From positions 17,886,589 through 17,950,588 of the forward strand of contig CP154954.1 in assembly GCA_039621445.1 (NCBI GenBank): a stretch of 64,000 bases of DNA. The letters run 5' to 3'. This stretch comes from Euglena gracilis. Its lineage: Eukaryota. The notes below the pieces were generated by a model, which saw nothing but the letters and a program-made list of their open reading frames with translations, was not told the origin of the DNA and searched no databases. The translations under genes were made by a program, and so were the position numbers. Positions 1 to 39,759 of the stretch are shown here, piece after piece. The first letter of the stretch is position 1; each line of letters starts with the position of its first letter.

Positions 1-299
1 CGTCCATCCACCCAAATCATCAAAAACTGTGTTTTTCGACTGTTTAATTTTTGCCCCCGTTCAAGTCCCACTCTGGCCCTTGGTCGGCCCTTTGGCCGAC
101 CAAGCCGTTCGTTCAGCCTTGCTGGGTGCAGGGCGGTCCTTAAGGGACAGGAAAGCTTTTTTTCTATTTCCTTAAGGACCGCCCCCCATTCATTCATTCG
201 GTCAGGAATGAATGAATGGGGGGCGGTCCTTAAGGAAATTAAAAAAAAACTTTCCTGTCCCTTAAGGACCTCCCTGCACCCGGCAAGGCTGAACGAACG
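1..299. repeat. Partial family A MITE followed by a long inverted repeat
   Basis: 1-98 matches family A interior; 106-299 is a near-perfect palindrome. Confidence 0.8.
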
Positions 300-730
300 T
301 GGCGGCACACCCTTCTGCATTCTATAACACAACATTTGGATTCCACACATGAAGTGTGTGCTTTCAACGTCAGCAGAGGTCATTTGAAATGACAAAAACA
401 AGCTAGGAAAACTTTCACTCCTCTGCAAAGCTGCTTTTTAATAAACAAATAAACAAAGACCCCAGGCAACAGCAGAGGGACCAGAGACAAAACATGACAT
501 GGCGGCCAACTACAAAAAAATTTCCAGGGCAAAATATTTTATGCAAAAAAATGCAAAAAAATGCAAATTTCGGAAAAACCTGATTATGCAAAAAAAATGC
601 AAATTATGCAAGTTGCATATTCCCCGCCCCTGCCCAAGCTCCTTTGGGGCAGGGGTGTCACAGCACCACCCTCCCCAAAACCTGTTCCCTTGGGGTCATT
701 GGGGTCAGGTGCGGGGGAGGAGGCCCACAC

Positions 731-808
731 TTCTGCAGCACCAGCTGCTGCCCCTGCAGCTCCAGATAGAACAGGGCGCCGCTGGTGCCCGCCAGCAGCA
801 GCTGGCCC
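731..808 (-). CDS. DDB1: DDB1 exon 18 ([17 protein letters not shown]...QK)
   Basis: Matches DDB1 Q...A.G.AL.YL; probable donor AA|gtgtgg. Confidence 0.88.
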
Positions 809-3800
809 CCCAGGGCCAGGGGCTTTTTCAGGACCCGGGGGGAGGAGGGGGGGTCCGGACCCACCCACCCACCCCCTGGGGGAGGCCCCCCGGGGGGGGG
901 GGGCTGGGGGAGACCCACTTTTGGGGGTCAATTTTGGGTCTAAATAAAATTTTCGGCGAGAAGCACCAAAAAAAAAAATGCCTCCAGAGTACCCACCCAG
1001 CCCGACCCCCCACCAGGGTTTCCCACTGATTCGTACTTGGGGACTCCTTTGCCCATTCGTACTTATTCGTACTTATTCGTACTTATTCGTACCTATTCGT
1101 ACCTATTCGTACTTCAAAAAAGGGCCATGTATGGCAATGGGTGACCATTTGGTATGCTTCCTTGGGCACATCTTCAACGTTCTGAAACCGGGAAAAGCAA
1201 GGAAAACAGGTCATTCACTTGAGAAACTATCTAAGTGACGAACTCATGCTGGCGAAATTTGTGGGGAAAAAATCGCGCTGTGAAAAAAAATACAAAACAT
1301 TACAGGAAAAACACATTCCTTCTTTGCGACTGATGTTGTCCAGCATGCCATGCACGAACAAATACTCAAGATGAAAAAGCGGATTGTTCAATTGTGTGCA
1401 AAGCGTTCTTCGCAGTCACCATTGCAAAACATGCCAACGGCTGCTTGCCGAAGGTTAGATGACATGTGTTGGCGGTTTTTGACATCAATCAGTCCTGCCA
1501 ATCTGAAAGACCGTTCAGACCAGGGCAATTCAATTTTGTGAGCCACACTTTCTTCCCGCTCAAGGATTTCCTTATGCTCGCAATGTGTGTGGTATACACT
1601 CTGTCCACTGACGGTGCAAACTACTCCCCTCTTTCACACTGCCATATACAGATGTGTACTTTCGGATGAGTCCCCTGATGGATGGATGGTCTAACTTGTT
1701 GATGGGCAAACCTAAAAATCATTTTCGGAGGGAAAAGAGGACATGAGGCGTCCTGCAGCGTAAGATATGCATCACATACAGAGAAGTGTGAGGGGCCCTT
1801 CAACTCAGTGCAATGGTGTAGAAAATTGTACCTTTTTCTACTTGGCAATTCGTACTTATTCGTAACTGGGGAATTTTTCATTTGTACTTATTCGTACTTA
1901 TTCGTACTTATTCGTATTTTGGCACATCTCGGCAATTCGTACTTATTCGTACTTATTCGTACTTATTCGTGTACGAATCAGTGGGAAACCCTGCCCCCAC
2001 CCCTGGGGGCTTGGCCGGGACCCACCCACCCCCCCCCCCCGGGCCACGAAACTTAAAAAAAAATCTCTGGTACGGATCCACCCGAGGGGGGGGGGGTCAG
2101 GGGGCTCGGGGATCCACTTTTGGGGGGCCAATTTTGGGGTCCAATCTTGATCGGTGCTTCGTGCCAAAAATCAAAAAAACCTGCCTCCAGCAGAGTACCC
2201 ACATGCCCCACCCCCCTCCCCCCTCCCGGGGCAGACCCACCCACCCCCCCTCCCCAGGGTCACCAAACTGTAAAAAAAAAAATCTCTGCCCAGGGCGTTG
2301 CAGCTCGCCAGGTTGATGGTGCACCCGCTTGGGCTGCTGGCCTGGGGGTTTGCTCCGGCCCAGCGCGGGAAGTAATTGGAATGGTTGCTCCGAAACACGA
2401 ATGGGGACTCCAACTGCCAAATTATGACCATTTTTTTCGACCGTTTTCCTGGTTGGAAGTTTTTTTTGTTTTGCCTGAGGACTGCGGGACCCCGCCGGGG
2501 GGTGGCAAAATGAAGCCTGGTGCTGGGGCAGGAATACTTTTCACATTAAGGGTCACCCTGCATTTAGCCAGAGGTGTGTGGGTCCAAGCACCCCAAATAC
2601 GGGTCGGAAAAGAAAAAACGTCAGGGAATGGTTTTTTTTGATTTTCGACCCTGTTCGATGTCTGGAACGGCCGTTGCCGGCACGCCCCTAAGGCCCAAGG
2701 GCGGTCCTTGACAAAAAAAAGCATATCATCTTTTATGGACCCCCTGCTTGCACTATGGGGTGCCTGCCAGCAGCGTGCACACCCCTGCGGGGGGGGGGGG
2801 CGGATTTGGGTTCCCAGCCCCAGCCGACCCAGCCAATTTGAAAATGGCCATTTTCATGTCCCCGGCGCCGAAGGTGGGCGTACTTTAGCACTGCCCACCC
2901 CAAAACCCAATCCCCAGGCTGAAAATGCCCTTCCCCCCTGCCTGCCCATAGCACTCCCCATTCAACGTTCCATCAAATTTCACAGAAAAAATGGCGAAAA
3001 ATTCCAAATTTTTCGGCGAGAATAGGTCAACATCACAACGTTTTTTAAAAAAAAACTACATTTTCTCACCTTTTTTTGAATGTCTACCCCGTTCAAACTG
3101 AATTATAAAAACAATCCTGTCCCTTGCGGACAAAGATTTCGGAAAAATTTTCAGGAGAGGTGAAAAACTGAAATAAAAATAATAATAAAAAAATGCTCTC
3201 ACATGGGGGAAAAAAACGCTTCCAACAAACCTTGAGGTGGGCCCTAGTCAGGCAAGTCAGGCAACTGTCAGATTGTTATCTGCAAAGAAAGGGAACCCCC
3301 GGTCCCATTCTTGGACCAAGCCTTTCGTTTGGCATGAGATCAGCCGGACACCCCGAGGGGTGACCTGAGTCAGAGGCATGGGCAGGGATGGTCTGACACA
3401 TGTTCTTTGGGGGCACCTCTCAAATGAAAGATAGGCGAGCACAAAAAAATTAAATTGGAATTAAAACTTGAATTCATGGTGCGGATCAACTTAGTTTTAA
3501 AACAATGTCTTCTTCGACAAGTTGATGAGACATGAAAAGTCTTCAACTTCCACAAAACAGCCGAGTCCTTGGGGGATCCAGGTTCACATCCACCCACCAC
3601 TGCAAGGGTTACCTGAATTGTTTGTTTTCACTGGGCATCCACAAAAAATCAAATGATGGTCCTGAGGCTAAATAAGAAGGATTGCAATTCCTGACAAATA
3701 TAGTTCACCAAATGGAAAAATATGTCAATGACCCCGCCTGGTGCAGAAATTTTTTCAAGGAACTGCAGAAAAAGAAGGGGTGAGCTGACCCAAATTTGAA

Positions 3801-6800
3801 CCAAAGTCTGAGAATCCCTGCAAAGCAATTTGTTATGATGAAATCTGAAAACTTTGGTTTGCATTAGATCTGTCACTTCTTTTTTTGGGACCTTGAACTT
3901 GCACCAAACATTTTTCACCCAAATCATATCTCTTGTATTTCTTCTCCATTTATGCTTGCTTTAGTCTGCATTGAAACAACAAACAACCAAAAAATTTTCC
4001 CCATATTCAAAATTATTTCCCCAAAATTTACTCAATCTCTCCCATGAGCATGCAAACTTGACTCCTTTGTAGTTTGGCAAACAAATAATAACATAATTTA
4101 TTATATAACAATAATGATAACACATCAATTTCAGGAGGGCAGCGGGTGGAAAAAATATCATTGAAATTTTGGGGGGAAATCAAAAATAACAACAAAATCG
4201 CGTTGTTTGAACCGGGAATTTCTTCATTTCTAGCACAAATCTTCTTCTTGAAATTGGCGCACCAGGTAAGAATTTGCAAACTCCAGTTGTAACAAAAGTT
4301 TGCCACAGTAAGCCAGCGGCAACGCAGCCAAGTCACCTGCACAAAGAAATGCGCCAGACTCTTGTTTTCGGCGGAGGCGATGTTGGTGCACAGCAGGGTG
4401 GGAAGGTCCGCCGCCAAGCCACCCAGCCTGGCTTCCTGACAGGCGAATATGCAAAAGCTTGCATCACTGCCAGCATTCTTGAAGGCCAGGTTCCTTTGCC
4501 CTTCCTTGCCCTCCAACTTTTCCTTACTGCACAAAAATGCAGAAATTGAACTGATGATGTCTTCCTCGTTCCTTCCCGAGACAAGACTCAAGACATTTCT
4601 CCCCGAGATATTATTGTTTAAAAGATGGTTTATATGGTGCTCCTGTTTGAATGTCCAGCATTGCATCGTTGAGTGTGGTACATTACTGCTTTGAAGCTGT
4701 GTAAGATACCTCCTCTGGTTGAGCCCCACAGGGGGCTGCACCTCGAAATCTAACCTTTGTTGTGTTGTATCATCTCTTAGAAACTGTTGGTTCGGAGGAA
4801 CTAATTCACAATCAAAAGTCCCCTTTTGCTTGAATGGGGAAAACAAAAATATGCGAGAAAACTATTAATCTCCCTCTTACACACCCTTCCAGTGAAAGAA
4901 CAATGAAACAAAAATTTTGGGCTGGAGGGAAAATAATGTGTTTGTTTGTGAATGTCATTGATAAATGCCATTGATGATAAATGGCAAAAAACCACACACA
5001 GGGGCATTTTGAACCATTTCAGGGGTCAGGATTTGACTTGATTAACAAATCCTTGAGGATTAGCAAACGATGGTGCAGAGATCCAACACAATGACAGCCA
5101 CATTAAATACCTTGTCATACAATTGTTAACCTACAGATGATTGTTTGACATTGATAAAACCTGCAATCAATGAGAAGAGGGTCACCCTATCCACAACCCT
5201 GCCGTCAATTACTGGGCTTGAAAGCTCAGAGTCCATTGGGCTGTTGATGCCATTGGTGGGGGAGACAGGCAAAGACAGAGACCTCGATGGATTCCTCGTC
5301 CTCCATGCTGAGCACCTTGGTCTCGTTGATGAAGGAGAGCACCAGGCTTCTTTTTACCGGGGGGAGGAGGGTCCCCCCTCCCACCCAGCCTGGTGCGGGA
5401 CCCCCGGGGGGGGACCCAAAAAATCGGGCTGTTTGCGAGCATTTCCCCCAAAAAATTTCGGTGTTCGCGCGGAAACCCAAACCCTTGCCTCCGGCCCTGG
5501 ACCCCCCCACCCCCCCCCGGGGGGGGGGAGGTCTTCTGACTTAAAAACAAGCCTGGAGAGCACCAAATACTTCGCGTTCAGCACTGCCTCCCCCTCCGTC
5601 ATGCTGTCCAGGGAGGGTTCCAGCAGGGACCACATTCCTGTGCAGGAGAGTTTTGTCAACCATTTGGCAGGGAGAACTATTAGCTTTCGACCTGCTCCAC
5701 GCAAAGCTGGTGGTTTTAAGCCGGGCTGAGAGCCCAGTTGGAGGCCAGGAATTGTGATCATGATCAAGTCGCTTCCCTGACCGCTTTGGTGGTGGCACAC
5801 CAATTTGGGGGGAGGGCACTATGAACGACCCTCCCCCACCCCCCCCCCCCGCTCAGCCCTGGAAAAAATGGCTCGCTGGAAACACACTGCTGGCTGACCC
5901 CCAATCCTGGGGTCCTGCGGTGGTCCATCACTGCTGTGGGGTGCAGCACGCAACCTTCTGGCGGCCCTGGACCCCAGCAACCTCGCACTAGCAAATAACC
6001 ACGGACCGCCTTGGAAGGTCAAGGAACCCTGGAGGGACCGAGCCACCGCCGGCGGGCGCGGCACACCCTTCACCCCCGTGAGCTGCAGCGAGGCCAGCTC
6101 GTTGATGCCGATGCCGTTGCGGATGACGCGGAGGCTGCCGTCCTTGAACGCCCCGCTGCAGGTCACCACTTGCCCCTGCCGCGCATAGGCACGGGGCATG
6201 GCGTCGGGAGCAGCAGTGGGGCTAGAGAAACACTTCTCTGGTTCCGGTGTTCTTTACAGGGCGGTCCTTAAGCAAATAAAAAAAAAACTCCGCTGTCCCA
6301 GCACACTCAGTGAAAAATACACGGGAAAATGGGCAAGAAATTTTGGCATTTTTCAGCGAGAACAGGTCGACATCAGGAAAAAAAATTGATTCCTGGCACC
6401 CTTGGACCATCGTCCATCCACCCAAATCATCAAAAACTGTGTTTTTCGACTGTTTAATTTTTGCCCCCCGTTCAAGTCCCACTCTGGCCCTTGGCCGGCC
6501 CTTTGGCCGAAAGGGGGGGGGGTCCTTAAAGAAATAAAAAAAACTTTCCTGTCCCTTAAGGACCGCCCTGGTTCTTTAAGACCGGGGAGGGGGAGGGGGG
6601 TCCCCATTGGCATTATGTATTTAAGGCTTAAAAACTTTTTTGGGCAAAAAGTGCCTGATGATGCCTTAAATGCCATAAAATGTTTAAAAATTTGGGTTGG
6701 CAGAACTTTCTCGAACCGAGCAAAAATGGAAGATGCAAAATATCGGCAAAAACACAGCCCAACTCTGGGGGGGAAAAATGATTTCTGGCATCGCTGGGAC

Positions 6801-9580
6801 ATTGGTCCAACCAAAAGTCAAAAAAACGTTGGTTTGATTCCCAGGCAGCCCTTTGAACGCTGTGGAAAACAGCATCTAAAAAAGCCTCAAAAAATGCCTT
6901 AAACTGCCTCAAAATTTTGAAAACAAAATACACCTGGTCCCCCACCCACCCAACAGAGGTAGGGGGTCCAGCCAACCCATCCACTCTGCTCCTTCCTCTC
7001 CCCCCTCCCGGGGTCCGAAACTTCCGTGCGCTGCCAAATCAGGCGTTGTTTGAGTCGTTGTTGGGAGGGGGGGGGTTGTTCAGCCAGGCACCATTTGAGC
7101 CCCCCCCCCCCCGCCACATATTGCGTGGTGTGTCCAACTTTCCTGTCGCTGTTTCACTGGTTGTTTTTTTTTAGAGACTGCCTGGTTCCAGGCCCTCCCC
7201 CCGGGTGGGATTGAACGAGGGGTGACCGAAAGAGGCCCATCCAGCACTGAAGGCGCAGGAGAATTCAGGTGAAAATGGCCAAACTGGATTGATTCTTGGT
7301 CATTTTGACGCTCCTCCTAAGCATGGGGGGGGGGGGGGTGCCTGCCGAGTCGCGGGCCAAAAAATGCCCAAAAATGGGTTTTCTGGGCTTCCGGAAGTGC
7401 CTTGGCCGACTGCCCAGGCACTTTTGGTTGTGTGCCCCCCTCCTGGGGGGGAGGAAGTCGGATGCCCAGGCAGGCACCCCCTTAGTTGCACTGAGGCTTC
7501 TTGTCTGTTAATGGCCGGCGCTAACTTCGCTTCTGGCCCAGTTTGTGTGGTGAGGCAGGCACCCCCCGAGGCAGGCACCCCCCCTGGGGTGGGGTCTGCC
7601 TCACGTTAAAATTGAGCCTGGCGCCCAAAGCCAAACAGAGGCTGTCTTATTTGCAGAACCTTCGACTGAAGCTGTGCTTTCAAACAGAACCCCTTTTGGA
7701 ACTGATGGCGAACTGTCTGAATGCATCAGATGTCCTTTGATGCCCTAAAGAGCACAAACGATGCGACCAGGTGTCTTTTCGCGATCCAAAGGGGGATTCC
7801 ATATGAGGGTCAGGCTGAATTTGACCAACCCTGGAGATGGGGATCTTGGGGTGTGAGTGGGCGGGTGGGTACTTCTCCCAAGGTTTGGCCATGTGCCCTA
7901 CCCCCCCCCTAGAGGGTTGGATCTGGGTGCCGTGGAGTGCCTTCCAGGCGGGCATCCCCCACCCCCAGATTGGGGTCGGCCTTGCCCAACAATATCAGCC
8001 AGATAAGGCCAGCTTGGACAGGTCCGTCAACAACAACAATGTTTTAAAAAAAACCCACCTGACGACATTTAATGCAAAATCCACAGGTGGTTGCAAAAAT
8101 GACCGTTTTCTGGCAAAAATGGGTCGACATCAGAAAAAAGCGGTGTTTGGCGTCCTTGAGGCATCGCCCATCCATCCGAAACATCAAAGAAATGCGGTTT
8201 TCGACTTTCGACGTTCCCATCCAAGCCCCAGACCGGCCGTTGCCCTGAGGCCTGAGGGCTGTCCTCAAGGGGCGGTCCTCACTACTGATTTTTCTAAAGC
8301 GCATTAAACAACCTTGAAAAAACCCAAAGAGTTTTGGCCAGAATGCCTTACAGTGCATTGGTGCCCTCCCCCTTGACTGGATGGAGGGCAGTCCGGGACA
8401 ATGTTGAACCATGGCTGCCAGAAGTCATGTTTTTTTCCGCAATTGGCTTGTTTTTGCCGAGAATTTGCAGTTGCATTTTCGCTCGTAAAGAGGAAATCGA
8501 GCCAAAAGTTTTTTAATGCCATTTTGATCTAAATGAACCATTCTTGGCCTGGTGTGAAGCGCTGGGCCGAAGATTCCCCAGCATCAACCCAAAATGCATT
8601 GATAGGCTCTTTTGGGCAAAAAAAAAAGCCGAAATTGCCAAAAAAAAAAATTCAATGCAAAGTGTCGGAAAGAAAATTTTTGACCCATTTGGGGGATCTC
8701 GGGTGCCCCCCCAAATTAACCGAGGGCACCCACCGTTGGTCTGAAGCAACCTTTGGTGGGGGGGTTTCCAGACTCTCCCTGTGGTCAAAAGGGAACGGCA
8801 CCATCGTTGGGTACGCCCTCCTCAAATTGAACCCCAGTGCAGGCTGCTGCCAAGCATCTATAGCCAAGCCCAAAAAAATCCCAATTTTAGGCCATTTTAG
8901 CCATTTTATGCCGTTTCAGGCCATTTTAGGCCATTTAAGGCCATTTTAAGGTATAGGTGGGGGTTCTGAAAATCATAATTTTGTGTCATTTTTGTCCCAA
9001 AAACTGTATCATAATGTATGCAAACCTTCTCTTATTCAGGAAGAAGAAATGCACATCTAAAAAAGCATGCAAAATTCATAAACACTGGATCAAAACCATG
9101 GGAAGCTCAACAAATCTTAATTCATACCCACAGAGGAATTCTGAACAAAGAATTTATCAGTTTACGGCAAAAAAAAAAGTTTTTCTGAAAACATTTTCAG
9201 AAAAAAATGTTGGACAAATGTTAAATCTTTTATTTGCACCACCAAAGAAGCGCCGGTCTTTTTTGCATTTTGTAAAATCATTTTGCGGGATATCGTAAAA
9301 GCAATCTTTTTCTTGAAAGATGATGCTTTTGCCTGGTGAAATTCAATTTGATTTTGGCAGTGTTTCAGCCATTTGGGTCTTTTTTTTTTGGCATGAGAGA
9401 GGATGGCAGAGATCAAAGGGCAAAGCTGAGAGCAATTCCTCTTCTCCGTGTTTCCCCCTTGGGGGAAACTTAATACTAAAAAGAAAACCCTCTGAACACG
9501 TTCATAAATATGAGAGAGCCACATTCATAATTGTTTGTGGTTATTTGGGTCATTTGATCATTATCATTATCATTATCACT

Positions 9581-9615
<35 letters not shown>

Positions 9616-9781
9616 TCTTCATATTATTAGTATTAATATTGTATTAGTATTAGTATTAGTATTAATATTAGTATTAGTATTAGTATTAGTATTAGTATTA
9701 GTATTAGTATTAATATCAGTATCAGTATCAGTATTAGTATTAGTATTAGTATTAGTATTAGTATCAGTATGAATAATAATA

Positions 9782-9832
<51 letters not shown>

Positions 9833-10407
9833 ATCATTATCATTATTTATCATTACTATGCTGATACTATTATTAGTTGGGATGCAAAAATGGGCCTTGT
9901 GGGGCTGTGCTCCTCCACCAAATCCACCGTTCGCCGTCCACATTAACAAAACACACCGAAAATCATTACCTGAATGGCTTCAGTTGTTCACAAAAAAAAT
10001 TGTTGTGCAACAGAATTTTACCATTTTAGGCCATTTTAGGCCATTTCAGGCCATTTTAGGCCATTTTAGGCCATTTTAGGCTATTTTAGGGACCCCCACC
10101 TATAGGGGGTCAAAAAGGCATTTTAGGCCATTTTAGGCCATTTTAGGCCATTTTAGGCCATTTTAGTGGCTGCCGCCCCCATCGGAAATAGCAGAGGGCC
10201 CACAGGAAGAAATTTGTTTCAGAATAGGCATTTTCTGGCATTCGCCTCGGGAGGGAGTCTGGACCGATCCAGATCTGGATACCCTAAATCTAGGTCTGGA
10301 TCAGGGTTTAGAGGGTTAGATATGATTGGTTAAAAAATGAGCCAGCAAACCAATTACATGTGTGTGTGTGTGTGTTTGCGTGCGTGTGTGTGCGCGTGCG
10401 TGCGCGC

Positions 10408-10491
<84 letters not shown>

Positions 10492-13400
10492 CAGGGCAGT
10501 CCTTAAGCAAATAAAAAAAAATTCCGCTGTCCCAGCACACTCAGTGAAAAAATTACAGGAAAATGGGCGAAATTTTGTCGTTTTTCAGCGAGAACAGGTC
10601 GACATCAGGAAGAAATTGATTCCTGGCACCCTTGGACCATCGTCCATCCACCCAAATCATCAAAAACTGTGTTTTTCGACTGTTTAATTTTCGCCCCCAT
10701 TCAAGTCCCACTCTGGCCCTTGGTCGGCCCTTTGGCCGAAAGGGGGGGCGGTCCTTAAGGAAATTAAAAAAAAAACTTTCCTGTCCCTTAAGGACCGCCC
10801 TCTGGTGTGTGCGCGCGCGTGCGTGTGCGCGTGTGTGCGCGCACGCGTGTGTGTGGGTGTGGTGTGGGTGTGTGTGTGCACTCGCAGCGCACATGGATGT
10901 AGAAAAGATCACTCAGAGTGGCTTGCACACCTGGCCCTGCCGGTCCAGATCCACAACCACAAAATCAACAATGGGGCCGAGGTTGGTGAAGCTCTCCAGG
11001 GTTTCAATGGCACTCCCACCCCCTGAACAGCAAAGGGGACCCTCAATGCGCGCCTTTCTGGGCGAAAACAAAAATTGAACTAAGCCAGGTGTGGCCCCCG
11101 AAGTTGGCCTTTTCGGCCTTTTGCACATGGCCCAAAACTCTGAACATCCAAACTTGACCACATAAGATTGGCCCCCTAGCCTGAACTTCAATCATCAGAT
11201 GCACATTCTCCTAAAAACAACCTCTGGCAGGGCAGGTTTGAGCCCCCCCCCTCGCAGTTGGTCAAATTCAGCCTGGCCTATTGGCATTGGAAAGCATTGA
11301 TACCTCCCCACCAAAATGGAGCATCTCTGGTGAAAAAAAAAACGTTGTATCCACCCAAAACTTGTCCTCTTTTTCCTGAATGACATCAGCGTCTGGCTCC
11401 AACGTCGGGGGGGGGGGGGGCTTCACATTTGGGTGGCAAAACCAAACCCCCTGGGGGGGCTGAATATTTGGGGGGGGGATACCCCCTGGTGGGAGGGGCA
11501 GTGTCAGCCACCCCGGAATCCAAGGAAAATTTGACACAAACGTGAAAAAGGGCAAAAAATGTTTCTGTCGCCTTCGACGCCGGGTCACTTTGGTGGTCTT
11601 TTGCCGACCCCCCCCCTCCCCACAGACATCTTGAGGCTATAATCACAATTGTCTGACCAACCAAATCTCGAAAACTCTTTTTTAACTTTCACGTCGAAAA
11701 TAGAAAAGTTCGATGCCTGGGCCACTCTTGGACCATCCTTGGAGACTAGTGGTTTAAAAAACCAGTCACTTTGAATAAACCTCAAGCAGTGACAAGGTTT
11801 CACTCCGTTGTTCAGAAATCTGAAAAATAATTTCTTCAAAAAATGAGCTTGGAGGCCACCTGAAATGATTTTGGGATCGATCTGTGACTTCGAAAATCGT
11901 GCCCAAACGATGACCCGGTCATGGAATTTGGCTGCTGAATTTATTATTTGGAGGATTCAGGGAATTTCTTAAGACAGCGGGAGGGGTCAGGGAGAAAAAT
12001 TCTTTCCAATTTTGGAACATGTTAAAACTGTGAATTTGGTACAAGAGCAATTCTGACCCTGAATGCATCCTGACCCTGAAAAAAAGTTGGGAGGTCAAAA
12101 TATGCATCATGACCCTGAAAAAAAGTTGGGAGGTCAAAATATGCAAAATATGATTAAAATACACATTATCCCAAATTTTTACAACGTAAAAGCTGAAAAC
12201 TATGCAAATGAGAAATTGCAATAATCTAGATAATGCAAAAGAAATGCAAATGATGCAACTTGCATAACCCCCCAGGCATTATTGTTTAAAGCGCCTGAAA
12301 AAACCTTAAAATGGGCCTCACAAATTTTGGCCAAAATGACTTAAATTAGAATTTTGGACTGGGAGACTCCAACCGAGAGGAGCTGTCCGCCCCTTGGACC
12401 TAAAGGCGGTCCTCAAGGGGCGGTCCAGAAGGGAAAAAAAAAACTTCCCATCCCTCATGGACTGCCTGGCAAAAAATAAGCCCACTCTGGAGAGAGCCAA
12501 CTCTGGACATTGTCCATCCAACCAAATCTCAAGAATGAGTTTTTCGACCTTTTTTGATTTTGGACCACGTGCAAAATCAACAACGTTTGGTTCGATGCCC
12601 AGGCAGCCCTTGGAGTGCCCTGGAAAATGGTGCCTTAAAATGCCTTAAAAAGCCTTAGAAGGCTTTAAAACGCCTTGGAATGCCTGGAAGTTTTGAAAAA
12701 AAAATGCGTTAAAAAATAATGCCTGATAACCCCCCTCCTGCAGATGCCCCCCAAAAATAATCTAAACCCCCAAATGGAGGGCACATACCAGGCTGCGATG
12801 CCAGGCGAACCAGTTGGGAGTCCGTAAATGCCCCACCAACAAATACCATAGAGGAGCCCAGGAAAGACAAGCAAGACGGAATGCAAGTCTGCAGAGGTGC
12901 GACCAGGGTGAAAAAAGTGCGGACCAACGAGACCGCCTTTTCGATGCACCTCATCACATACTATCGCCCTGGTAATATGGGTAACTGCATTGGGGCTGAA
13001 AAGAAGCTAATTCAATTTCAAAAAAATATTTGGGTATTATTATTATTATTATTGGAGCCAAACCTTCTGGCACCCAATGCCAACATTTCAGAGACATTTT
13101 TTTGCACAGAAAAGGAAGCATGTATTTTGATTTAAATGCGAAGCCTTGGGGTATTGGTTTCATGGGATGGGTCCCGCGATGATGACAATTTTCAAGTTGG
13201 TCCAATTTTCTCTCTACCCTGAAAGCTTTGACCCCAACCTTCATAAATCCTGGAACGCCAATTGGATGCATGGAGGCCAGGGTTGGGGTTGTTGTTCAGT
13301 TTGGGGATGAGGTGAGGGTTTGGACTTCTGAAGGATTACCATCGGGACCGAATGGCCGCCCGAAATTGTTTCACAGAATTTTTGGGGTATGTGCAGCCCA

Positions 13401-16400
13401 TGGGGTGCAGCACGCCAAGTTGGATGACTGTTCGGCAGCTCCCAACTATATGGCCCCCCCAGGGGGGGGGCATGTAGTTGGGAGAGGGGGGTCCAAAAAT
13501 TTTTTTGTGTTATTGATGGAATAGGGTTAGGGTTAAGAGGTAGGATTAGGGTTAGGCCTAACTTATAGCGTGAAGTTAGGCCGAATTCGTAACCCTAACC
13601 TTACTCCATCATTAACACAAAAAAATTTTTGGACCCCTCTCCCAACTACATGGCCCCCTGGGGGGGGGGGGGCCATATGGTTGGGAGCTGCCAACTGTTC
13701 TTGGGGTGGGCACGCTGGTGGATTGCTACTCCACTCCCCAGTTGCAAAAGGCATGCACTGCTGTGCATTTCAGTCCATTTCCCTCTGGCAAGAATTAGGC
13801 AAGAATTTGAGGAAAACTATGACCATTTTTTTTTGTCAGGATGTATGCTGACCATTTATCCCTCAGGGTGGGTGTGCAGACTTCATTCCAGCATGCAGAT
13901 TTTGTCTGGGACTGCAGCTCTTGAGGAAGAAATGATTCTGTTGACAAAGAAGCGTTCTGTTCAAAATGTTTTGTTTTGGTTTTGGAAGAATGTTTGCCCT
14001 CAAAAAACACCTGAAATCGTTTTATGAAAAACACAGTTGTGCGGACATGTACTTTTTTCATGCATCATTCGACAAAGAGCGAAAATCTGGGGTCATGCAA
14101 GTGCCTATATTTTTTTTGATCGGGGCCATGGGGGGGAAACTTTGGACATAAGGGAGCGTGGTGTTCTGAAATAAAAAATATCATAGGCAACCTTCAACAA
14201 CTTCCAGGGCATTCCTCAAATACCCTCCTGAATCCAGTGACCCATGCCATGCCAGAAGCACACACGGGGGGGGGGGAGGGCATAATTTTCTAGGTGTCTT
14301 TAAAAAACCTTAAAACCGTTTAAAACCTGTGGGGAAAAAATGCCCAAAAAATGCCTTCAAATACTTTGAAATGCCTTTAAAACCCTCAAAAAAAATCATC
14401 CGGCAAAATTTTTCGTCTGACCGAGCAAAAATGAAATCACAAAATCTCGGCACAAACAAGCCAGAGTTAGAAAGGAAAATGATTTCTGGCATCCTGGAAC
14501 ATTGTTTGTCCACCCAAACTCAAAAAAAAACATGGTTTTCAGCTTTTTGGGTTTTGACCCCTTTCTCGGAGGGCCCCTGTCCCCAGAAAAATGGAAATTT
14601 AAACAGCCTTTAAAAACATTAAATGTTCAAAAAAATATCTTTAAAAAACTTCACAAATTAAAAAAAAACTTTCACCTTAAAATCAATCGGGTGTCCACTC
14701 CCAATTTGGGGGGGGGTCGATTTTTGGGTCCTTTGAGCCACAAATAGAGGAACCCCCCCTCTGGGGGCACCCACTGGACACAACCCTCCCCCTGGGGGTC
14801 ACCAACAATTTTAAAAAGAACCTCTAGGCACTACAAAGGTGAAGAATCCTTATTGACCAGACATCAACATACCTCTCCAATAACATCCAAATGTAACTCA
14901 ACATTATCTTCAATCGCTGCCAGCATCACAATGAACAGTCGCCCAGCTTGATCTCCAAGGAGAAATCTGGAAAAGCAGCAAAAACATCGTGGAATAATTG
15001 GTACGGAATTAATTACCACCATTTTCCATTTTCCGATGACTTCTGGTATTTTAGGCTCTTCCAGTGCGGTTGAAACCTCTTGAGGCATTGGGATGAGAAT
15101 CATCACAGGCTTCTATTTAAGGGACACCCATGATCCCAGAAAAAACACCGATAGACTGAACCAGGTGAAACGGCAGATAAAACCCAGGCAGATAAACCCC
15201 CCCCAAAAAAGACACAAAAAAACATGAACAAAGGCGCAAAAAAAAACACAACTAAACACAAAAAAAGCAAATTTGATTTGTGCATAAAAAAACATGCTTT
15301 TTTGTGATTTAAACATGATTTTTGTGATTTTGGGGACACACTGATGCCAAAAAACATTCAATTTATCAGCCAAAAAAAATGTCAAATGTCAAAAAAACTG
15401 ACAAATATTTTGCTTTTTGAGAAGAACTTGAATCAGAATTTTTCAACACAAAAAGGAAAAATCGAAAACCGCAAATCCCCCCCGCTGAGACCCCACCTTG
15501 CATGATTCTTGACCTGCAGCCACAAATCGGTGGACCCCACTGGTGAGCACCCAGACCAATCCTCAGTGTAAGAAAATGTTGTCCCAGAACCAAAAACCAA
15601 CAAAAAATATACAAAAACCCCGAAATATCTCTGCAAAACCAGGTCGACATTGGGGGAAAATAATACCTTGGACCATTGCCCGTCAACCCAAAACAGCACC
15701 AAAAAATCAAACAGCACTTTTCTCCGACTTTGCAAAAATTTTGACCCCCTGGACGGGCCTTGAATTGAAGACCGCCCATTCTGTCTGGGAAGCCACACCT
15801 CTGGTTGTCTATGCGGCACCACGCCCGGATGACGGAGGTGCTGCAGCCCACCGCGGTGCGGCTGCAGATGGACTTGGTGTATGTCCCGCTGTGGTAAGTG
15901 AGCAGCTCCTCCCCGATGATGAGCAGGCCTCCCAGAGGCGGCGGGACCTGCAACGAGATGGCCGCCGTGCGCTGCAGGCATGTGCATGTACTGCTTCCCA
16001 AATTTCCTGCTGTTTGGTTTTGGTCGTTTGTCTTTGGTTTGGCAAGACTGAATCTTTTTCACTGCGCACATCCGCCCTCTATAATAACAGCTTCTGTTGC
16101 GTTGTTGGATGCCAGAAAATGCGCAATCTTGTGTTATTTTTGACTGCAATTTCGAGTGACTTGTTTTTTGACTGCACAAAACGACCTTAGAGGGATTCGG
16201 GGATTCATATATATACATATATATTAAATATATACATATATTTCATCTGCGCTTAAAGACCACACTGATCCCTGGGGGGTCGACCCCTATCTCCATCTTG
16301 GTGGATGGGGGGGTTTCCTGATTTCTGGCATGCTTGGATCCGGGGGGGGGGGCGACTTGAAGCTCCCCCCAGGTACCAGGCCATTGCTTAAGGCAGGGCG

Positions 16401-19400
16401 GTCCTAACAGAAATAAAAAAAAGAAAAAAAAACCTCTCCACTGTCCAACACTCAAAACAAAATATACAGGAAAATGGTCAAGAAAATTTGGCATTTTTTT
16501 TGGCAAAAACAGTCAACTTTAGGGGGAAAAAAAACTGATTCCTGGCCTCCTTGGACCAGTGCCCATCCACCCAAAGAATCAGAAAATGTGATTTTCGCCT
16601 TTCTCATTTTTGACCCCATTCCAGTCCCAGTCGGCCGCTGGTCGGCCCTTTGGCTGAAAGGGGGAGTCCTTAAGAAAATTAAAAAAAACATTCCTGTCCC
16701 TTGAGGACTGCCCCGGGAGGGGTCCAGGGGTTCCCCCTCCCAAGGTTCCCCCCAACTGGAAAAAAAAATTCCTCCGGCGCTGCGCACCAAGTTGGAAATG
16801 AGGTTTTCAATGGTTTTTTGGCTGATTTTGTTCGCAAAAACCCAAAAATGGCCAAAGATGGGGATTTGGGCCGGTTTTGGGGGTCCCAAATAATTTTCTG
16901 CGCTTCGCGATGGTCACTGGGAAAAGTTTGTCCACCAGCCAGCCCTACTAGCAGACCCCCCCCAGGGTCCACTAGGATTTCCACCAGCCAAATTTGGACA
17001 AGCTGCAGTCCAGTCCCCCCCCCCCAGGGGTGGACAGGGGAGGGTGTGCTGCAAACGAAAGGCCTGGCAGGCAGGTACCCCCCCAAAAAGGAAAAAAAAG
17101 CCCAAATCCAGCTGGGTTGGAAGTTTTCAGCCAAAATAGGAGGTGACCCAAAGCCACCCCCATTTTTGCCTCCTTTTTTCAAAAAAAAGTTCCAGTCCAG
17201 TCCAAACCTTATTTCAATGGACCCGGCCGGGAGTTGCTGGTTGGAAAAAAGGTGCTGGCTGGTTGGACCCAGGCATTATTTATTATTTATTATATTTAAA
17301 AACCTTGAAATTTTCGTTCTGCCCAGATGGCCAGATGGCTCTTGAACCGCCTTAAAGATAGATGCCTTAAAATTTTTTTAAAAATCTCAATATGCCTCAA
17401 AAACCCTCAAAAAAAAAACTCAAAAAAAAAAACTCCATAAACCTTTAAAATTTTTGACTTTTTTGAAATCTTTGAAAATTTTCGACTTAAAGAAATAATG
17501 ATGCCTGGTTGGACCCTCCAGCTTAAGAAACCTGTGTCAACTCCACCCCCCAGGGGGTTGACTGACTGGCTTTTTTGGAGTGACTGGCTGGTTTTTTTTT
17601 TTTTGGCTCCTGGACCCCCTCCCTGTGAAAGCCAATATCACAAGAGAAATTTTTCTCCTGGAGATGGCAAAAAGCAGAATTCTTCTCAAAAGTTTCCATA
17701 CTTGTCCATTGCTAAACTTTGTTTCCTTACATTTGGCGATTTATCACTTTATTGCATATTTTTCCTACCATTTCAAAATTACATTTTCAGGCATTAAACC
17801 CGCCCCAAATAGTATTCCCCCAAATAATATTCCTCCCAAATAACATTCCTCAACTTCAGCCGCCCAAAATAATATCCCCCCCCCATTTTGCACAGAGCGC
17901 AACAGAAACAAAGGAGTTTTCCTGGGAGCTGGGACCGTACTTTTTGTGCAATTTTTACATGAATTCCACCATGTTCAGATTGAAAACAGACAGGAAAATA
18001 CCAAAAGGTGCAATTTGAGATGTTGCTTTGATGGTGTTCGACATGGAGACAGTGCATTTCACAATCAAGATTTTACGCCCGAAAACCCAGGGAAATAATC
18101 GCCAAATAATCCCGCCCTGAGGGTGGACTTCAGCGGACCAAATGATATTCCCGAGGGGTGGAATTATTTGGGAGGTTATTTGCATTTTTTTTGCCATTTT
18201 GGACACATATTCCTTCAAAAAATTCATTTTTCCTATAAAAAAATCAAAAAAACTTTTTCCTTGAATGTCTTCATGAGAACCCAGATATTTTTTCCAACTG
18301 TGATGAAACCAAATGCGAAGCAGCCGTGAGAACAACAATGGCATTTCTTTGACAATCAAATTTTTGTTGCACGGAATTTCCAAAAATAATTAAACTCAAA
18401 GAACAAACCCCCCACCAAATTACAAACTTAATTATGCAAAAAAGCCAGTAATTAACCCCCCAGGTCACCAATCTTAAATAAATCGGGGTTGGGACCCCCT
18501 GCCTCGATACCGAAGGCCTTCCCACACATCCCTGCGGTTTCTGGGATTCCCTTTCAGCCCTGGCCGGGCCATGCAGCTTATCGTTTGGGCAAAACAACCA
18601 TCCCAATCATGCAAAAAACGCAAATACAATCACGATTTGTGACGGATCATCCCAACGCATACCGGTATGAGCAGCGACGCGGTGTTTTCCACGTTGTGTT
18701 GCACAAATGGGTGATCCACCAGGTCTTTGTCAGCCACCATGATGTTGTAGGCCTTGACATGCCTGCAGGCAAATGTGAGGTGTGCAAAGGTGATGGAAAT
18801 CAAAAATTTCCCATCATTCCTTTTTCCCATAATCTGTCCCCCCAAATGCCCTGAGTACGTTCGAGCTTCAGGGGTGATCTTGTGTCTCATAAAAGGAAGG
18901 GGGATATTCACATTTTTGGGCCGGGAAACCTAGATGCTTTTGGTTTAAAGCACAAAAGACAACAACTGTTTTTCCAAAGTAAGGCGTCCCATCATTATTT
19001 TCCCTTGGAACTGTTTCAATTGAATCACATTTAGCCGTCAATTTCCCCTCATTCCCGTCAGTTTGACAGTACCGCGGGGTCCCATTCGCATTCGGAATGC
19101 GCCCTTGGTCACCCAATCAAAAACCCAGCACCGGTCCCAAAAGAAAGTTGCAGGCAGCCTAACCTGGCTTTTTAGACTGTGGACCACCCCCCCCCTGGGG
19201 GACCACAAACCTGTGCTGCTTTTTTTTTTCGTTTTTTTGCTTTCGGACCGCCCTGTCCTCCACAAAGTCCACACCCCCTTCTTCAGCATGGGCCGATCAT
19301 ATGAATGTTCTGAGTTCATTGTCTTCGGGTTTGGCTTCAGGTGGCGCACCAGAGCACAAGAATAAGAGCTCAAGCTCATCCTGGGGGGGGGGGTCCAGCC

Positions 19401-22400
19401 AGAAGCCTGTTTCCTGTTCCCAAATTTTCCAGCCTTAGAGCTGGGGGGAGGGGCAAAGCGAAGCCCTCTGGGTAACCTTTGTCACAACGTTGATGGTGTG
19501 ATGTGATCCCCCGATTTGGAAGTTGGGTTGGAAGTTGGGTTTCGTGGTGGCTGTACGCCCCTCGACGCGTTACAGCAAGCCCTCGGAATTGGGGCGGCGA
19601 TTTAGGCTCCAGTTTGGCCGAAGTTAAGACCTTTTTGCCCCCAGACTTCTTTTCAAGACCCCCAAGCCCACCCACTCGGCCCAGTGCGGGGCCCACCCCG
19701 ATTTTTGCCCATTTGGCGTGAGTTAAAACCAGCATTTTTTGAGATCCAAACTCTCTGAGGACACCATTGTTTATACATGACTATAGAAGCCACACCTGTT
19801 CCCTTTTGTGTCCTCGTACAGAAAGGCCACAGTGTTTGTGGACCAGGGGTCGGTTGAGGAGGAGGAGGACGCAGATGACGTGGCAGCAGGGTTCACAGCG
19901 GCCGGCTTTTCCAAGAAATGCAAAAAAAAAGCAAAACCAAAGGGCAGGGAGCGGATCAAAATCCATGGACGGTCCTGAAGGTTAAAAAAAAAGAATCCTG
20001 TCCCATCTCATTCGACGCAAAATTCCATGTGGGGCAGGTTTTTCCCCTTGTTTTCGATAAAGGCAGCCCTTTGAGGATCTCAGACCGAAGGGTTGGCCAA
20101 GGGCCGGTCCGGGGTCGAACAGGGTCAAATACTTATATTTATATATAATTAGAAAAATATATTTGTTTTTATACGTTATAAACAAATATACAATATTTAA
20201 AATTCGCCTTTTTTTACCTGTTTACAATGCGGACAAAAATACAACAAAATTACGGCAGACGAAAATTACGGGGGAAAATATTACAAGAAACAAATTATGG
20301 GAATTTTTTGATTTTGAAAAAAACCAACAAAAATTCAAAATTTTAGAGAAAGTGGTGGTAATTTTTTTCAGTTGAAATGAAGATTTTTTTAAAGCAAAAA
20401 TGTCACTCAAAATCCCAGGGGGTGGTCAAAATGGACTTCTGGTGGTGTTTTTGTGAGTTTTCAATTCACAAAAAACCCCAAGAATTGACAACATTGCACC
20501 TTGTCTATTTGTGCGTGACTGCCCTTGGGAGTGGCTCCCCCAAAGGGCATAGGGAAAATGCACTGGACAAGAACTTTGGGGGAAACCCGATAATTTTTCT
20601 CTCTTGTAATTTTTGTCTGCGCTGTATGGACGGGCGATGGTCAAAGATGCCAGAAATCACTTCCCCCCCCCCCAAAATTGACCCCCGTTTGCGCCAAAAC
20701 GTGGCCATTCTTTTCCGCCCATGGTTCCTGTGTATTTTTGGACCGCCCTGCAGACCACCTTTCCACCCACCACCCTTAACTTCCCGTTCAGACTGCATTG
20801 TGAACCTAGCCAATTGCGTCAGTGTGTGTGTGTGTGTGTGTGTGTTGTGTACAATCCATCAAAGGTGGTGTGACTGCCATTTGTGCGGTTTATGTTTAAT
20901 ACCAAAAACAATTACCTTTCCATCACACTAGATTCTGCTTTTGAATCTCCAAAGCACAAAGACAGCCACAGTTCCCGACTCTGCAAGAAGCACATGTCAA
21001 AGAGCTTGTGCTCCTCCACCCGAAGGTTGAATGCGTCCTTGAGCTGACACTGCCCGGCACTGTTGGCGATGGGAATCACTTTGAGCAACCCCTGAAGTGG
21101 AAAGCAGTGGCATGGTCCACACCAAGAGCACGTTGCTTTGCAATCTGAGCCCCCGAAAAAAGATGCCCTCCCGACACGTTCAATTAAAAAATACACAAAA
21201 AAAAGCGGAAGTTGACTCGGCAAAAACATTTTGACATTGAAAAAATGATTTCTAACATTCTTGGACAATCGCCACCCACCCAAAACATCCAAAATGTGCT
21301 TTACAACTTCACCCATTTTGGGGGAATTTAAGCTGTCTGGAGTTGAGCTGCTGGCTGGCTGGACCCCCCCCCCCCGGGGATGGGGTCCCCTCCGACCTAA
21401 GAAATCCCCTGCTTTGGGCACTAGCGACAGAGGAATTTTTTTTTCCAGTTCGGGCGACCCCTGGACCCCCCCCCGGGGGGGGGTCTGGCTGGTCCATTTT
21501 TTCCAGTCTAGCCGATTGGCTAGCCAGTACCCCCCCCCCCCGGGGTCCTTAAACAGAAGCCTGATCCTACCCCTGACCCTGTTTTTAAAATCAAGTGCCA
21601 ACCCTCCCCAAATCTGCCGCTGGTTCCCCTGCGCCACGGGCGCTTGTCAGCTTGCGAGCAGCGGAGCCGCTGTCTCTGACTTGCCAGGACCGGACGCGGG
21701 CTGGTGCAGGATCCACAGCGAATGTGAAGAGAATGACGTTAAAGTTTCTTCCGCCGCCTTTGGCACGACGTCATCCCCCCCCAAGGAGGGGGAGGGGTTT
21801 GGCCAAAACCAGTCAGCCATTTGGGGGGGGAAAAACAATTAGTCAGGCCTCCCCTGGGGTGGGGTTGGCCTGCGCGCCAAGGTGGAAATGAGGTTTTTAA
21901 TAGGTTTTTGGCTGATTTTGTTCCAAAAATTCCTAAAAATGGCCAAAAACGGACATTTTTGGCCATTTTGGGGGTCCCAATTTTTTTTCCACTAGCTAGC
22001 CATGATAGCAGACCCCCCCCCGGGGGGGTGTGCTATAAATCCCAATAGCCAAATTTGGACTAGCTGCAGTCCAACCCCCGCCGGGGGGGGGGGGGGGGGT
22101 ACTGCAATCCCTTAAGCAGAAGCCTGGGTAGGATTGGCCTGCCGAAAATTGGCCCTTTTTGGGGACAAAGGTAGGGTGGAAGTTAGGTGACAAAGATTTA
22201 AAAAAAAATAACGCCGTCGACTGTGAAAGGTTGCCATGCATACGGCACGACATACCTCGTAGAGGTGCAAAGCAATCAAAGTGCCGGCTTCATTTATAAG
22301 CCCAATTCGAGGTATTTCAACTTTCCGCCCTGTGAGAAAGCAAACCAACTCCGGAGGTTAGTGCTGTTGTCCACATTTGATGTTGGGTTAGGGTTAAGGT

Positions 22401-25400
22401 CAGGGTGAGGTTTAAGGGTAGGGTTGGTGAACATGGGTGTTGCTCAATGACCCCCCCTGTCTGCACTGTGGCTATTTGTTTGGTGCCTTTGAATGGCTAA
22501 GGGCAGGGAGCGCATGAAGCATCCCGGACCCTGACACCCCGGACCTCATGATGCCACTGTCGTCCCCAAGTCTGGTGGAATCTCCTGATTGGCACGTTCG
22601 TTCCCTGCATTTCAGTCAACTGTGATTTGTCCTTCAGTCTGCGTCTTGATGTGGATTTGGAGGACGACGATTTGGACTTGTCTGAATCCGAAATGTGCTC
22701 ACCCAACCGTCTGAAAAGGGGAGGTACTGGTTCATCAATTGCCCCATGGGCCTGGCGGGGCTGGGCTGCAGGGTCGGCCTGCTGCCGGGGAGTGATGGGG
22801 CGCAGGAGCCCTGGGAGGACGACTTAGCCCCTGAGAATGTTGCCAACACAGAAGGGATTTTGTTATTTGAGGGGGGGTGTGGGGGCGGACCCCCCCCCCG
22901 CCTATGCCAAAGTGAGCCACAAAAATAATTTAGCCCCCGAGTATATTGCCAACACAGAAGAGATTTTGTTATTTGAGGCTCGGGTGGAGGTGGAGAGGGA
23001 GTTTTCTGCCCCTCATAATGCAGAATGCTTGCATTTCTAAAGGATTTTCATGTAATCCCTGTTTTGTCATTGGTTTTTTACCCCTCCGGACCCCCATCAA
23101 GGGCCCACCGACCCACCGACCAAAGATTTCCATCTGAGGGTGTTTATGTTGGTGTAAGGCACTTGTTTGGACCCATCCGGACCATTTCCGGGTGATTTGG
23201 GCCCGCCACAGACCATTTTTATGACCACCGACCAGCCACCGACTAGTTTGCATAGGATTTTGTTCATCGGGGGGGGGGTTAAAAGTTGGCGGTTTTGACC
23301 CGTTAGTATATTAGAGTGGGTATTTCGCCAACTAGTCGGCCGACTACCCACTACCCCCTCCCACCCCGTCTCGCCGACTGGCTACCGACCAATTAGTCGG
23401 CCGAATAATCGGCCGACTACCCACTAACCCCCCCCCCCAGTCTACCGCCATGCGCCGCTCTTGTGGCCCAGAACCTGCATGTTGGGGTGTTTTTGGGCCG
23501 GTTTTTTGCCAGAAAATTGATTTTTTCGAAAAATCTCGACAATGAAGCAAAATGAAAGAAAATTGCGTGGTGACCAAAAACGAAGCCCTTGAAATGCCCT
23601 ATCCAACCACGCTTGACTTTCCCCCCAGCTCTTCGCCGAGCCTGAGGTACAGCTGTTTTTGGCCAAGTTTTGGCCCATTCCTTCGGCCTGTTTTCGGTCA
23701 ATAAAAAAGGAATGAAATATTTGCCCAAAACCATGGGGGTGTACCCCCTGTACCACATGGAGGGTTTCCGCATCCTAGCAAGGGCCAAAAAATGGCACCT
23801 TAGGAATTGTCACCCAAATTTGGAATCAAAACTACCAAAAAATGTGTGATAAATTCCTAATTAGATCAATTTGGACCAAAAGTTCTAAAAATAGATCATA
23901 TGTGACGTTGTATGTGAGGTCACACTGGTCACATGTGACCCGGCCATTGTTGTTGACAGCTTGTTTTTTTTTGGACGCTGTTGTTTTGTTTTTTTTCCAT
24001 TTTAACAATGTTTTTTTTGAAAAAAAACAAAAAACGCCAACAAGGTTTTGTTCGAAAAATTTTTGAATGTATATTTTCATTTTTGGCAAGTTTTGGGTCA
24101 TTTTTGCCAAAAATTTCCTTACCTGCCATTTTCTGTTTGCACAATGAAAAAAAGCCTTGCACTGGACAATGGAAAAGGATCCACATCGAGAAGTTTCGAA
24201 AGGCAAATGTGCAAAACACCCGATCCAAGCACAAAAATTTTCGGAACGGAGGCAACTATCCTTGGGACAAGGTGCAAACATTTTTGAGATACAGGAAATG
24301 CAAAAATATGCGGTGTGAAGTGCGAAAAATTCAGGCGTTAAGTGAAAGCCAGACCCCGCCCCACCGCCCCTCAGTTAGTTGCACTAAGGCTTCTTGTCTG
24401 TTTATGGCCAGCACTAACTTCGTAGCTTAATTTGTGTGGTGAGTGGCCAGGGACCGCGCCCCCCCTCCCAGCCCGCCAAATGCCTACCCTAAAATTCGTG
24501 GTCATGAACACGTTTTCAATGAGGGCATCTGTGGCAATGACACGTTTTCGATTAAGGCATCTGTGGTCAGGCACGTTTTCAATTAGGGCATCTGTGGCAA
24601 CAAAAACGCTGTCATGAAAAATCGGCAGGCGGTTTCGAGGCCGGGTGGTCCTCAACGAGTGAGGCGGGTCGGGGGCACTCTACAACACGACAGAAGGCTG
24701 GTGGTGGGTTTCACCACCGGCCTCCACTCCGTCTCGTTGTGCTCAAGGCAACCTTCAGAGCGCCAATTCCCCCACTTCAACGGGATGTTTTCGCGTTCCC
24801 TGGAGCGCGAACGCGCGCGGAAGGCAGTGTCAACGGTGGTTCGGCCTCCAGCTGAGGTGTTGCAGCCTGAAGAGTTGGACCAGTTGCTGAAGGGGGTGAA
24901 CTGGTCCAACCCTTATGAGGCGCAACGAGCGAACATCCTGGTGAGGAAGGCAACACCACTCCCTCGGTCGTTGTTTTGCGGAATGCCCGAGCGACGGCAT
25001 TCACGTATGTCTGAAAAGAGGTTGCCGAACGATTCCCTGAAACGAACAAAGTTCCCGACTGCTGCTCACGTTGAGCCACACATTGTTCAATGACGCTCGC
25101 CTCATCGAACAACAGGCTGGGTTCCAGCTCCCATCCCGTCCAGGCAACAAAGAAAGCATCCAGCACAGGATAAGAGGCTTGCCGATGTTGACACAGTTTG
25201 GCGAACTCCAAACAGTTGGCAACAGCAGCAAGCTCTGCACCTACGGAGCCGGACTTTTTCTTTGTGTTGCCCTGTGCCAGCAAGGTGCCATGAAGGGGGT
25301 CAACCTTCGGCTCCTTGGCATCTTGCTGGTATACCGCGAGAGCAGCCAGGAACAGTTCCGTCCTAGGGGGAGGTGGTAAAAGACCATTCACAAAGTTAGC

Positions 25401-32283: not shown

Positions 32284-32355
32284 GGTCTTATAGTGTAGCG
32301 GTTAGCACATGGGATTCTGATTCCCATAACCCCGGTTCGAATCCGGGTAGGACCT
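32284..32355 (+). tRNA. tRNA-Gln (anticodon CTG)
   Basis: 72-nt cloverleaf: acceptor GGTCTTA/TAGGACC, anticodon arm TGGGA-TTCTGAT-TCCCA, T loop TTCGAAT, downstream T-runs (Pol III terminator). Confidence 0.95.
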
Positions 32356-39690: not shown

Positions 39691-39759
39691 GACAATTAGG
39701 GCAAATTAAGGCACAACGGTGCTTTCTATATATTGCAAAAACTGGCTCCTACACTAGAC

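Follow-up and report, generated by a model that had tools for sequence, protein, structure and literature searches.

The thirteenth intron of the DDB1 gene of Euglena gracilis, which lies in the 64-kb stretch of contig CP154954.1 analysed here (the window, 64,000 nucleotides), is a nonconventional (NC), non-GT-AG intron. It was quite likely born when an element of the MITE type (a miniature transposable element with inverted repeats), hAT-like and generating 8-bp target duplications, inserted in an exon. The insert comprises a 213-bp element with terminal inverted repeats together with one copy of an 8-bp duplication, it can be removed in a register that fits the published NC splicing code, and the mRNA product lacks the 221 nt, as seen in a transcript-derived protein and in RNA-sequencing depth. 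Two of the four NC introns in this part of the gene have this build, and similarly built elements, not themselves introns, lie beside them. The gene and the parts of the insert are as follows, in window coordinates, with the strand given where a feature has one:

730..30095, minus strand: DDB1, first 18 exons (560 codons), with the start codon at 30095; the gene continues past the low end of the window
5559..5637, minus strand: DDB1 exon 13, placed with the protein as guide
5283..5337, minus strand: DDB1 exon 14, placed in the same way
5338..5558, minus strand: DDB1 intron 13 (221 nt) as delimited by the nonconventional register N3-CAG...CTG-N5
5343..5555: MITE-like element, 213 bp, with CAG...CTG ends, delimited by its terminal repeats and the duplication
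5343..5356: terminal inverted repeat on the exon 14 side, complementary to 5542-5555 at 13/14 positions
5542..5555: terminal inverted repeat on the exon 13 side, complementary to 5343-5356 at 13/14 positions
5335..5342: target-site duplication, copy 1, GAGAGCAC (plus strand), identical to 5556-5563 (8/8)
5556..5563: target-site duplication, copy 2, identical to 5335-5342 (8/8)

The window carries DDB1, a euglenid DNA-repair gene, on its minus strand. A homologue search with the upstream exon returned 510 proteins at E <= 0.001, and among the best 120 of these 510 those with a name are DNA damage-binding protein 1. Exons were placed by tblastn and a register scan from 30095 down to about 730, and the spliced translation is identical at 559/560 residues to the best homologue, P0001, whose source label, EG_transcript_838, we take to denote a protein of the Euglena gracilis transcriptome. 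A preliminary description of this DNA had placed a complete MITE in DDB1 intron 13, inside a conserved LVLSF motif; counting from the start codon at 30095 together with the DDB1 homology bears out the number of the intron, and the sense-strand sequence quoted in that description is present in the window. The motif is conserved as well, since the pattern [LMV]V[LVI]SF occurs in 114 of the best 120 of the 510 homologues (LVVSF in 107, LVLSF in 3, LVISF in 2, MVLSF in 1 and VVLSF in 1), and the insert thus sits within a conserved block. Deletion of the 221 nt, as had been proposed, gives a continuous protein string identical to that of P0001, and both P0001 and P0002, another euglenid transcript protein, run uninterrupted across the intron 13 site. 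Retention breaks the frame, also as predicted, because 221 is not a multiple of 3; the element is short and non-coding, and the retained frame meets a stop inside it at 5354-5356 (open reading frame 5354..5818). A search of solved structures with two short exon peptides gave 0 matches for each, the peptides being too short.

The anatomy first ascribed to the insert, that of a complete 213-bp MITE, is found in full, with terminal repeats matching at 13/14 positions and a perfect duplication of 8 bp. The two junctions are spanned by an exact 11-nt direct repeat (5334-5344 and 5555-5565, 221 nt apart), which can be resolved into the 8-bp duplication plus one and two adjacent bases that match the CAG/CTG ends of the element by chance. 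In the same way, the inverted-repeat arms at 5342-5356 and 5542-5556 measure 15 nt and are 93% complementary, and subtracting one chance flanking base per side leaves the 13/14 match. Read on the sense strand, the first 5 nt of duplication copy 2 close exon 13 and its last 3 nt form the 5' spacer of the intron; the first 5 nt of copy 1 form the 3' spacer of the intron and its last 3 nt open exon 14. The spacers of 3 and 5 nt add up to the 8-bp duplication, so that splicing takes out the element plus one duplicate and the pre-insertion codons are restored. This relation combines arithmetic on the sequence with the published spacer lengths.

The whole window was scanned for an 8-mer followed by a CAG...CTG segment of 40-3000 bp with a terminal repeat of at least 9/12 and then by the same 8-mer. 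The scan returned 4 exact cases (intron 13, intron 17, 6257-6570 and 17270-17507), against a mean of 0.25 in 40 Markov-shuffled controls, even with one mismatch. When the right-hand 8-mer was slid by 1-10 nt, 0-3 cases were obtained (at most one mismatch) versus 6 in register. The elements of this build other than that of intron 13 are:

812..2291, minus strand: DDB1 intron 17, 1480 nt, in the NC register; element at 817-2288, 8-bp duplication at 809-816 and 2289-2296
6257..6570: 314-bp element with CAG...CTG ends, a 14/14 terminal repeat and a perfect 8-bp duplication, in conventional intron 11
10492..10804: second complete copy from the 314-bp family, at 92.7% identity and with an 8-bp duplication that differs, in intron 11
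17270..17507: 238-bp element with CAG...CTG ends, a 10/12 terminal repeat and a perfect 8-bp duplication, in conventional intron 7

Intron 17 is bounded by CAG/CTG ends, its direct repeat measures exactly 8 nt, the exon after it starts with a purine, and it has no GY-AG register. Its 3' end is also the closest non-self blastn match in the window to the element of intron 13: over the 3' ~100 nt, beginning at the element terminus, the two introns are 76% identical with few indels (blastn E 7e-7). We regard this homology as probable and not as certain because the sequence is G/C-rich. A GT-AG register compatible with the protein exists for 13 of the 17 introns (1-4, 6-12, 14 and 15), and no protein-compatible GT-AG register was found for introns 5, 13, 16 and 17. 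Of the 4 NC introns in this part of DDB1, both that fit the code, 13 and 17, have a perfect 8-bp duplication; introns 5 (19894-20974) and 16 (2339-3304), on the minus strand, fall outside the CAG/CTG spacer code and have junction repeats of 1 and 0 nt. The ends of introns 5 and 16 are able to pair, with duplexes of -28.9 and -24.0 kcal/mol, respectively.

A second, generic scan, in which the end letters were unconstrained, brought out two further elements. One, at 12273-12725 in conventional intron 10, has a 9-nt flanking repeat and the same type of end as the 17270 element; both are A/T-rich and have their first 11 end letters in common. The other, at 1014-1993, is 980 bp long, has perfect terminal inverted repeats of 23 nt and a 7-nt repeat located in a C-run, is nested in the intron 17 element and contains internal 10-bp tandem repeats. 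The 314-bp MITE-like family has 16-nt perfect terminal repeats and includes an older copy at ~16394-16716 (79% identical, without a duplication) and fragments at the start of the window (1-276), where a big imperfect palindrome at 100-300 is made up of two short derivatives of the family and their flanks. At position 6257, the edge of a full copy, DNA contigs end or are joined in large numbers, and their summed depth greatly exceeds that of the flanks. The duplications of 4/6 elements begin with GT in one orientation; we dropped this as a candidate target preference because it was too weak.

The siblings that lie outside exons (6257-6570, 10492-10804 and 17270-17507) argue for insertion of DNA rather than for a by-product of RNA or of repair. 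The alternative that survives best, improbable as we consider it, is that the 8-nt repeats are scars of double-strand-break repair with captured filler DNA and that no transposon was involved. A repair origin has been proposed for an E. agilis gapC NC intron with 8-nt repeats (PMC4770533). Moreover, no transposase was found among the open reading frames of 30-64 kb, the half of the window with a segmental duplication, where 0 of 54 reading frames of at least 110 aa match a Pfam family, and blastn found no second full-length copy of the intron 13 element in the 64 kb, the matches being mostly C-run/G-run matches. Repair filler, however, would account neither for the terminal inverted repeat with its 13/14 match nor for a duplication length that stays at 8 bp in five elements; it would also leave unexplained a family of which two copies, 92.7% identical, occupy different sites and bear different duplications, and the common terminal motif.

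The register 5338-5558, which the preliminary description had derived from the consensus, puts CAG at +4..+6 and CTG at -8..-6 and fits the published nonconventional splicing code. The NC consensus in euglenids has CAG at +4..+6 and CTG at -8..-6 (PMC3935182, PMC11282704), and knock-ins in E. gracilis define the code as 5'-N3CDG...CH'GN5-6|R, in which the 5' spacer of 3 nt is intolerant of change, the 3' spacer has 5 nt, 6 being tolerated, and a purine is preferred, not absolutely, at the start of the downstream exon (PMC12501133). None of the 14 exact protein-compatible registers of intron 13 has GT/GC-AG borders. The lone GT-AG register of equal 221-nt length, 5350..5570, keeps the frame and turns Tyr into Ser (Lys-Ser instead of Lys-Tyr). 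It is slightly less probable than a repair scar that intron 13 is an ordinary spliceosomal intron removed through this register, its inverted and direct repeats being irrelevant to splicing. A C-rich tract precedes the AG of 5350-5570 on the minus strand, in keeping with the C-rich pyrimidine tracts of conventional E. gracilis introns (PMC11170887), and a minor spliceosomal route giving Lys-Ser is possible. The register, however, predicts Lys-Ser-Leu-Val where both P0001 and P0002 have Lys-Tyr, and its 5' site poorly matches those of the gene's 13 other GT-AG introns, which start with GTRTG, GTTYG or GTSWY.

The absence of the 221 nt from RNA was followed in the raw reads of RNA run X21, of which ~5% was read. 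Depth is 0.14 in the all-intron bin 5351-5487, compared with 6.2 in the exon 14 bin and 12.8 in the exon 13 bin, which puts the intron interior at ~1% of exon depth; over nearby conventional introns it is 0 except where C-runs or a repeat element draw reads. A second RNA run, X24, was too low in depth to be informative. The sole mismatch between P0001 and the window, at residue 429, gives a handle on the allele that is expressed: P0001 has Pro and the window Leu, a two-base difference at 5609-5610, where 6/10 X21 reads carry the Pro codon and 4/10 the Leu codon of the window. Since both forms are present in X21 RNA, two alleles or copies are expected to be expressed, and since the Leu form accounts for 4/10 reads, transcripts of the window variant are present, yet there is almost no RNA from the intron interior.

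These data bear directly on a very improbable alternative, namely that the insertion has disrupted the allele in the window and intact mRNA comes solely from an insert-free allele. The Pro of P0001 against the Leu of the window, and the 6/10 share of Pro in X21 RNA, are what speak for it. Against it stand the 4/10 RNA reads with the window's Leu, combined with an intron interior at ~1% of exon depth, as well as the DNA evidence. Contig pieces of two other DNA runs, X1 and X2, at 4819-5356, which are of a different haplotype, extend 19 nt into intron 13 and carry the element end; 3-4 substitutions and 15 gap letters set them apart from the window, and at the listed variant sites 4971, 4986 and 5203 (and 5068 in X1) the letter differs from the window's in all contig depth. 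In X1, interior position 5449 is covered too, at a depth like that of a single copy, with a variant in 90.6 of 138.5. No empty-site joint appears among the joints listed. As the X1/X2 contigs are diverged from the window and still carry the element end, the insert is common to a diverged haplotype or strain.

Apart from the lack of a transposase and of a second full copy, a number of observations weigh against a transposon-born NC intron. The first base of exon 14 (5337, sense) is C, so that the purine preference is unmet, and for one tested intron an A-to-C variant at the exon start gave an unstable transcript (PMC12501133). The ends of intron 13 form a duplex of -22.6 kcal/mol with arms complementary at 14/15 positions; even so, the minimum free energy of the whole intron is -123.6 kcal/mol without the terminal stem versus -121.2 with the stem forced, a penalty of 2.4, and the terminal stem has an ensemble probability of ~2%. 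In the predicted fold the intron's 3' end favours an internal 10-nt complement over the terminal stem, and the fold as a whole has a z-score of -1.77, with 11/200 shuffles equally good. No RNA joints appear among the read joints listed, a list filled by repeat-driven joints of DNA contigs. P0001, given its Pro at residue 429, is from another allele or strain. Finally, we infer the hAT-like affiliation solely from the duplication length and the type of end.

The preliminary description had expected copies of the element elsewhere. What the window offers is a single diverged relative, found at the 3' end of intron 17, and three solo ends; since it holds no second full copy, to call the element multi-copy is to rely on partial relatives, which likewise counts against it. 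The terminal motif occurs 6 times in the window versus 0.6 expected. The three solo ends (15106, 21563 and 22126) share ~17 nt plus a C-run/G-run and nothing beyond, and for solo motifs at 15106, 2519, 19409, 21563, 22126 and others no partner end was found that matched in terminal repeat as well as in 8-mer. Two solo ends in intron 4, at 21556-21571 and 22119-22134, have the same orientation and 8-nt flanks that are mutual reverse complements, and they may reflect a rearrangement between two elements. Joints in the X1/X2 DNA contigs place 20-26 nt of the element ends beside other repeats (for example 5556-6257 and 2958-5337), which hints at element ends at other loci. Summed contig depth over the element is ~10x that of the flanks in 5351-5487 and far more in 5488-5624, values that are inflated by C/G runs and do not represent copy number. 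Metagenome scans with terminal-repeat pair patterns gave 0 matches both for the intron 13 element and for the 314-bp family.

The recent gain that had been read from the intact duplication and terminal repeats does not follow from them. Intron 17 is clearly older, with a 9/12 terminal repeat and the nested 980-bp element, and it still has a perfect 8-bp duplication; an intact duplication is therefore no clock. The insert is, moreover, also present in the diverged X1/X2 haplotype.

Taken as the insertion of a transposon, intron 13 would have the following history. A small non-autonomous DNA transposon with CAG...CTG ends would have inserted in a DDB1 exon and generated the 8-bp target duplication. 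In the pre-mRNA, the NC splicing system would recognise the CAG close to the 5' end and the CTG close to the 3' end and would cut 3 nt upstream of CAG and 5 nt downstream of CTG, at sites presumed to lie in these positions within the 11-nt repeat. Removal of the element and exactly one duplicate would bring back the pre-insertion frame (KYLVLSF). The intron ends may pair and so bring the splice sites together, and intron 13 may then be released as a circle, as the literature reports for the NC class. For an NC intron, this release would be expected to bypass the spliceosome and to come once the conventional introns have gone. The least probable of the alternatives, spread by reverse splicing of excised, circular intron RNA and reverse transcription instead of DNA transposition, can draw on the reported release of NC introns as circles (PMC11282704, PMC12621601), but reinserted intron RNA would bring along the 3+5 spacers of its donor and so leave no perfect target duplication, whereas introns 13 and 17 each have one.

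Elements of the hAT superfamily produce 8-bp target duplications and often have CAG at their ends, and 8-bp duplications are also made by other superfamilies. The intron 13 element resembles non-autonomous hAT elements in its 8-bp duplication, its short terminal repeats starting with CAG, its small size and its lack of coding capacity; the sibling at 12273-12725, with a 9-bp repeat, departs from the strict 8-bp pattern. We put forward tentatively, rating it a little short of an even chance, that the NC code mirrors at the RNA level the insertion geometry of one transposon superfamily, and that most code-fitting NC introns, which make up the majority of introns in E. agilis, are its decayed insertions. 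If this were true, any CAG...CTG element that duplicates 8 bp would, on landing in an exon, act at once as a precise intron that restores the frame, and the 3/5 stagger would give the terminal stem a 2-nt 3' overhang at its base, like the one left by an RNase III-like duplex cutter.

Elsewhere in the window, a segmental duplication of ~12 kb (34918-47189 versus 47218-58694) has 94-99% identity and small inversions. A tRNA gene lies in each duplicated segment (45857-45928 and 57354-57425) and a third at 32284-32355. An Rfam search of the whole window returned these three tRNA genes and nothing else, with none near the intron 13 element.

NC introns and the hypothesis of their MITE origin have been in print for some time (PMC3935182, 2013; PMC4770533, 2016; PMC11282704, 2024; PMC12501133, 2025), also for diplonemids (PMC12621601). 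The 2025 study calls the origin of the Euglena NC introns unclear and notes that the MITE idea is based on inverted and "TSD-like" repeats (PMC12501133). As characterised in the cited parts of this literature (PMC3935182, PMC4770533, PMC12501133), euglenid NC introns share with intron 13 the lack of GT-AG, the CAG/CTG positions, the 3/5-nt spacers, terminal inverted repeats, direct repeats at the junction ("slidable") and removal from mRNA. Intron 13 departs from the NC norm given there in the C at its exon start and in a terminal stem that is not the favoured predicted fold. It also differs from the NC introns in those accounts in that its junction repeat breaks down into a complete 8-bp duplication and 3 bases matching by chance, and in having sibling elements outside exons in the same locus. 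In our search we found no literature that links the spacers of 3+5 nt with a duplication of 8 bp or assigns a superfamily, although supplements may hold repeat-length data; the terms "hAT", "8 bp" and "8-bp" are absent from the 2024 review (PMC11282704) and "duplication" is absent from the 2025 code paper (PMC12501133).

The nearest single case is intron 4 of E. agilis gapC, a strain-specific NC intron with eight-nucleotide direct repeats that was taken as a recent gain (PMC4770533). It shares with intron 13 the NC class and the 8-nt junction repeat; the cited account reads it as a possible double-strand-break scar, whereas at DDB1 the inverted repeats, the related intron and the siblings point to a transposon. 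A wider parallel is offered by the introners of Micromonas, Aureococcus and dinoflagellates, as reviewed in PMC11282704, in which a transposon-like insertion with terminal repeats and a duplication becomes an intron and the duplication supplies part of the trimmed sequence, so that the frame is restored. Introners, however, are spliced by the spliceosome at GT/GC-AG, whereas intron 13 lacks an exact register of that kind and follows the Euglena code, and they occur in many near-identical copies, whereas the intron 13 element has a single full copy in the window.

Intron 13 is thus not a new kind of system but a fresh and clean illustration of a hypothesis that has been in print since 2013. The locus provides a resolved case, in which each of two NC introns is made up of a single CAG...CTG element and one 8-bp duplication, and beside them lie elements built alike that are not themselves introns. 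It lends unusually direct support to the proposed transposon origin of the class. Finally, the link between spacers and duplication, 3+5 = 8, makes the question of that origin testable on existing assemblies.

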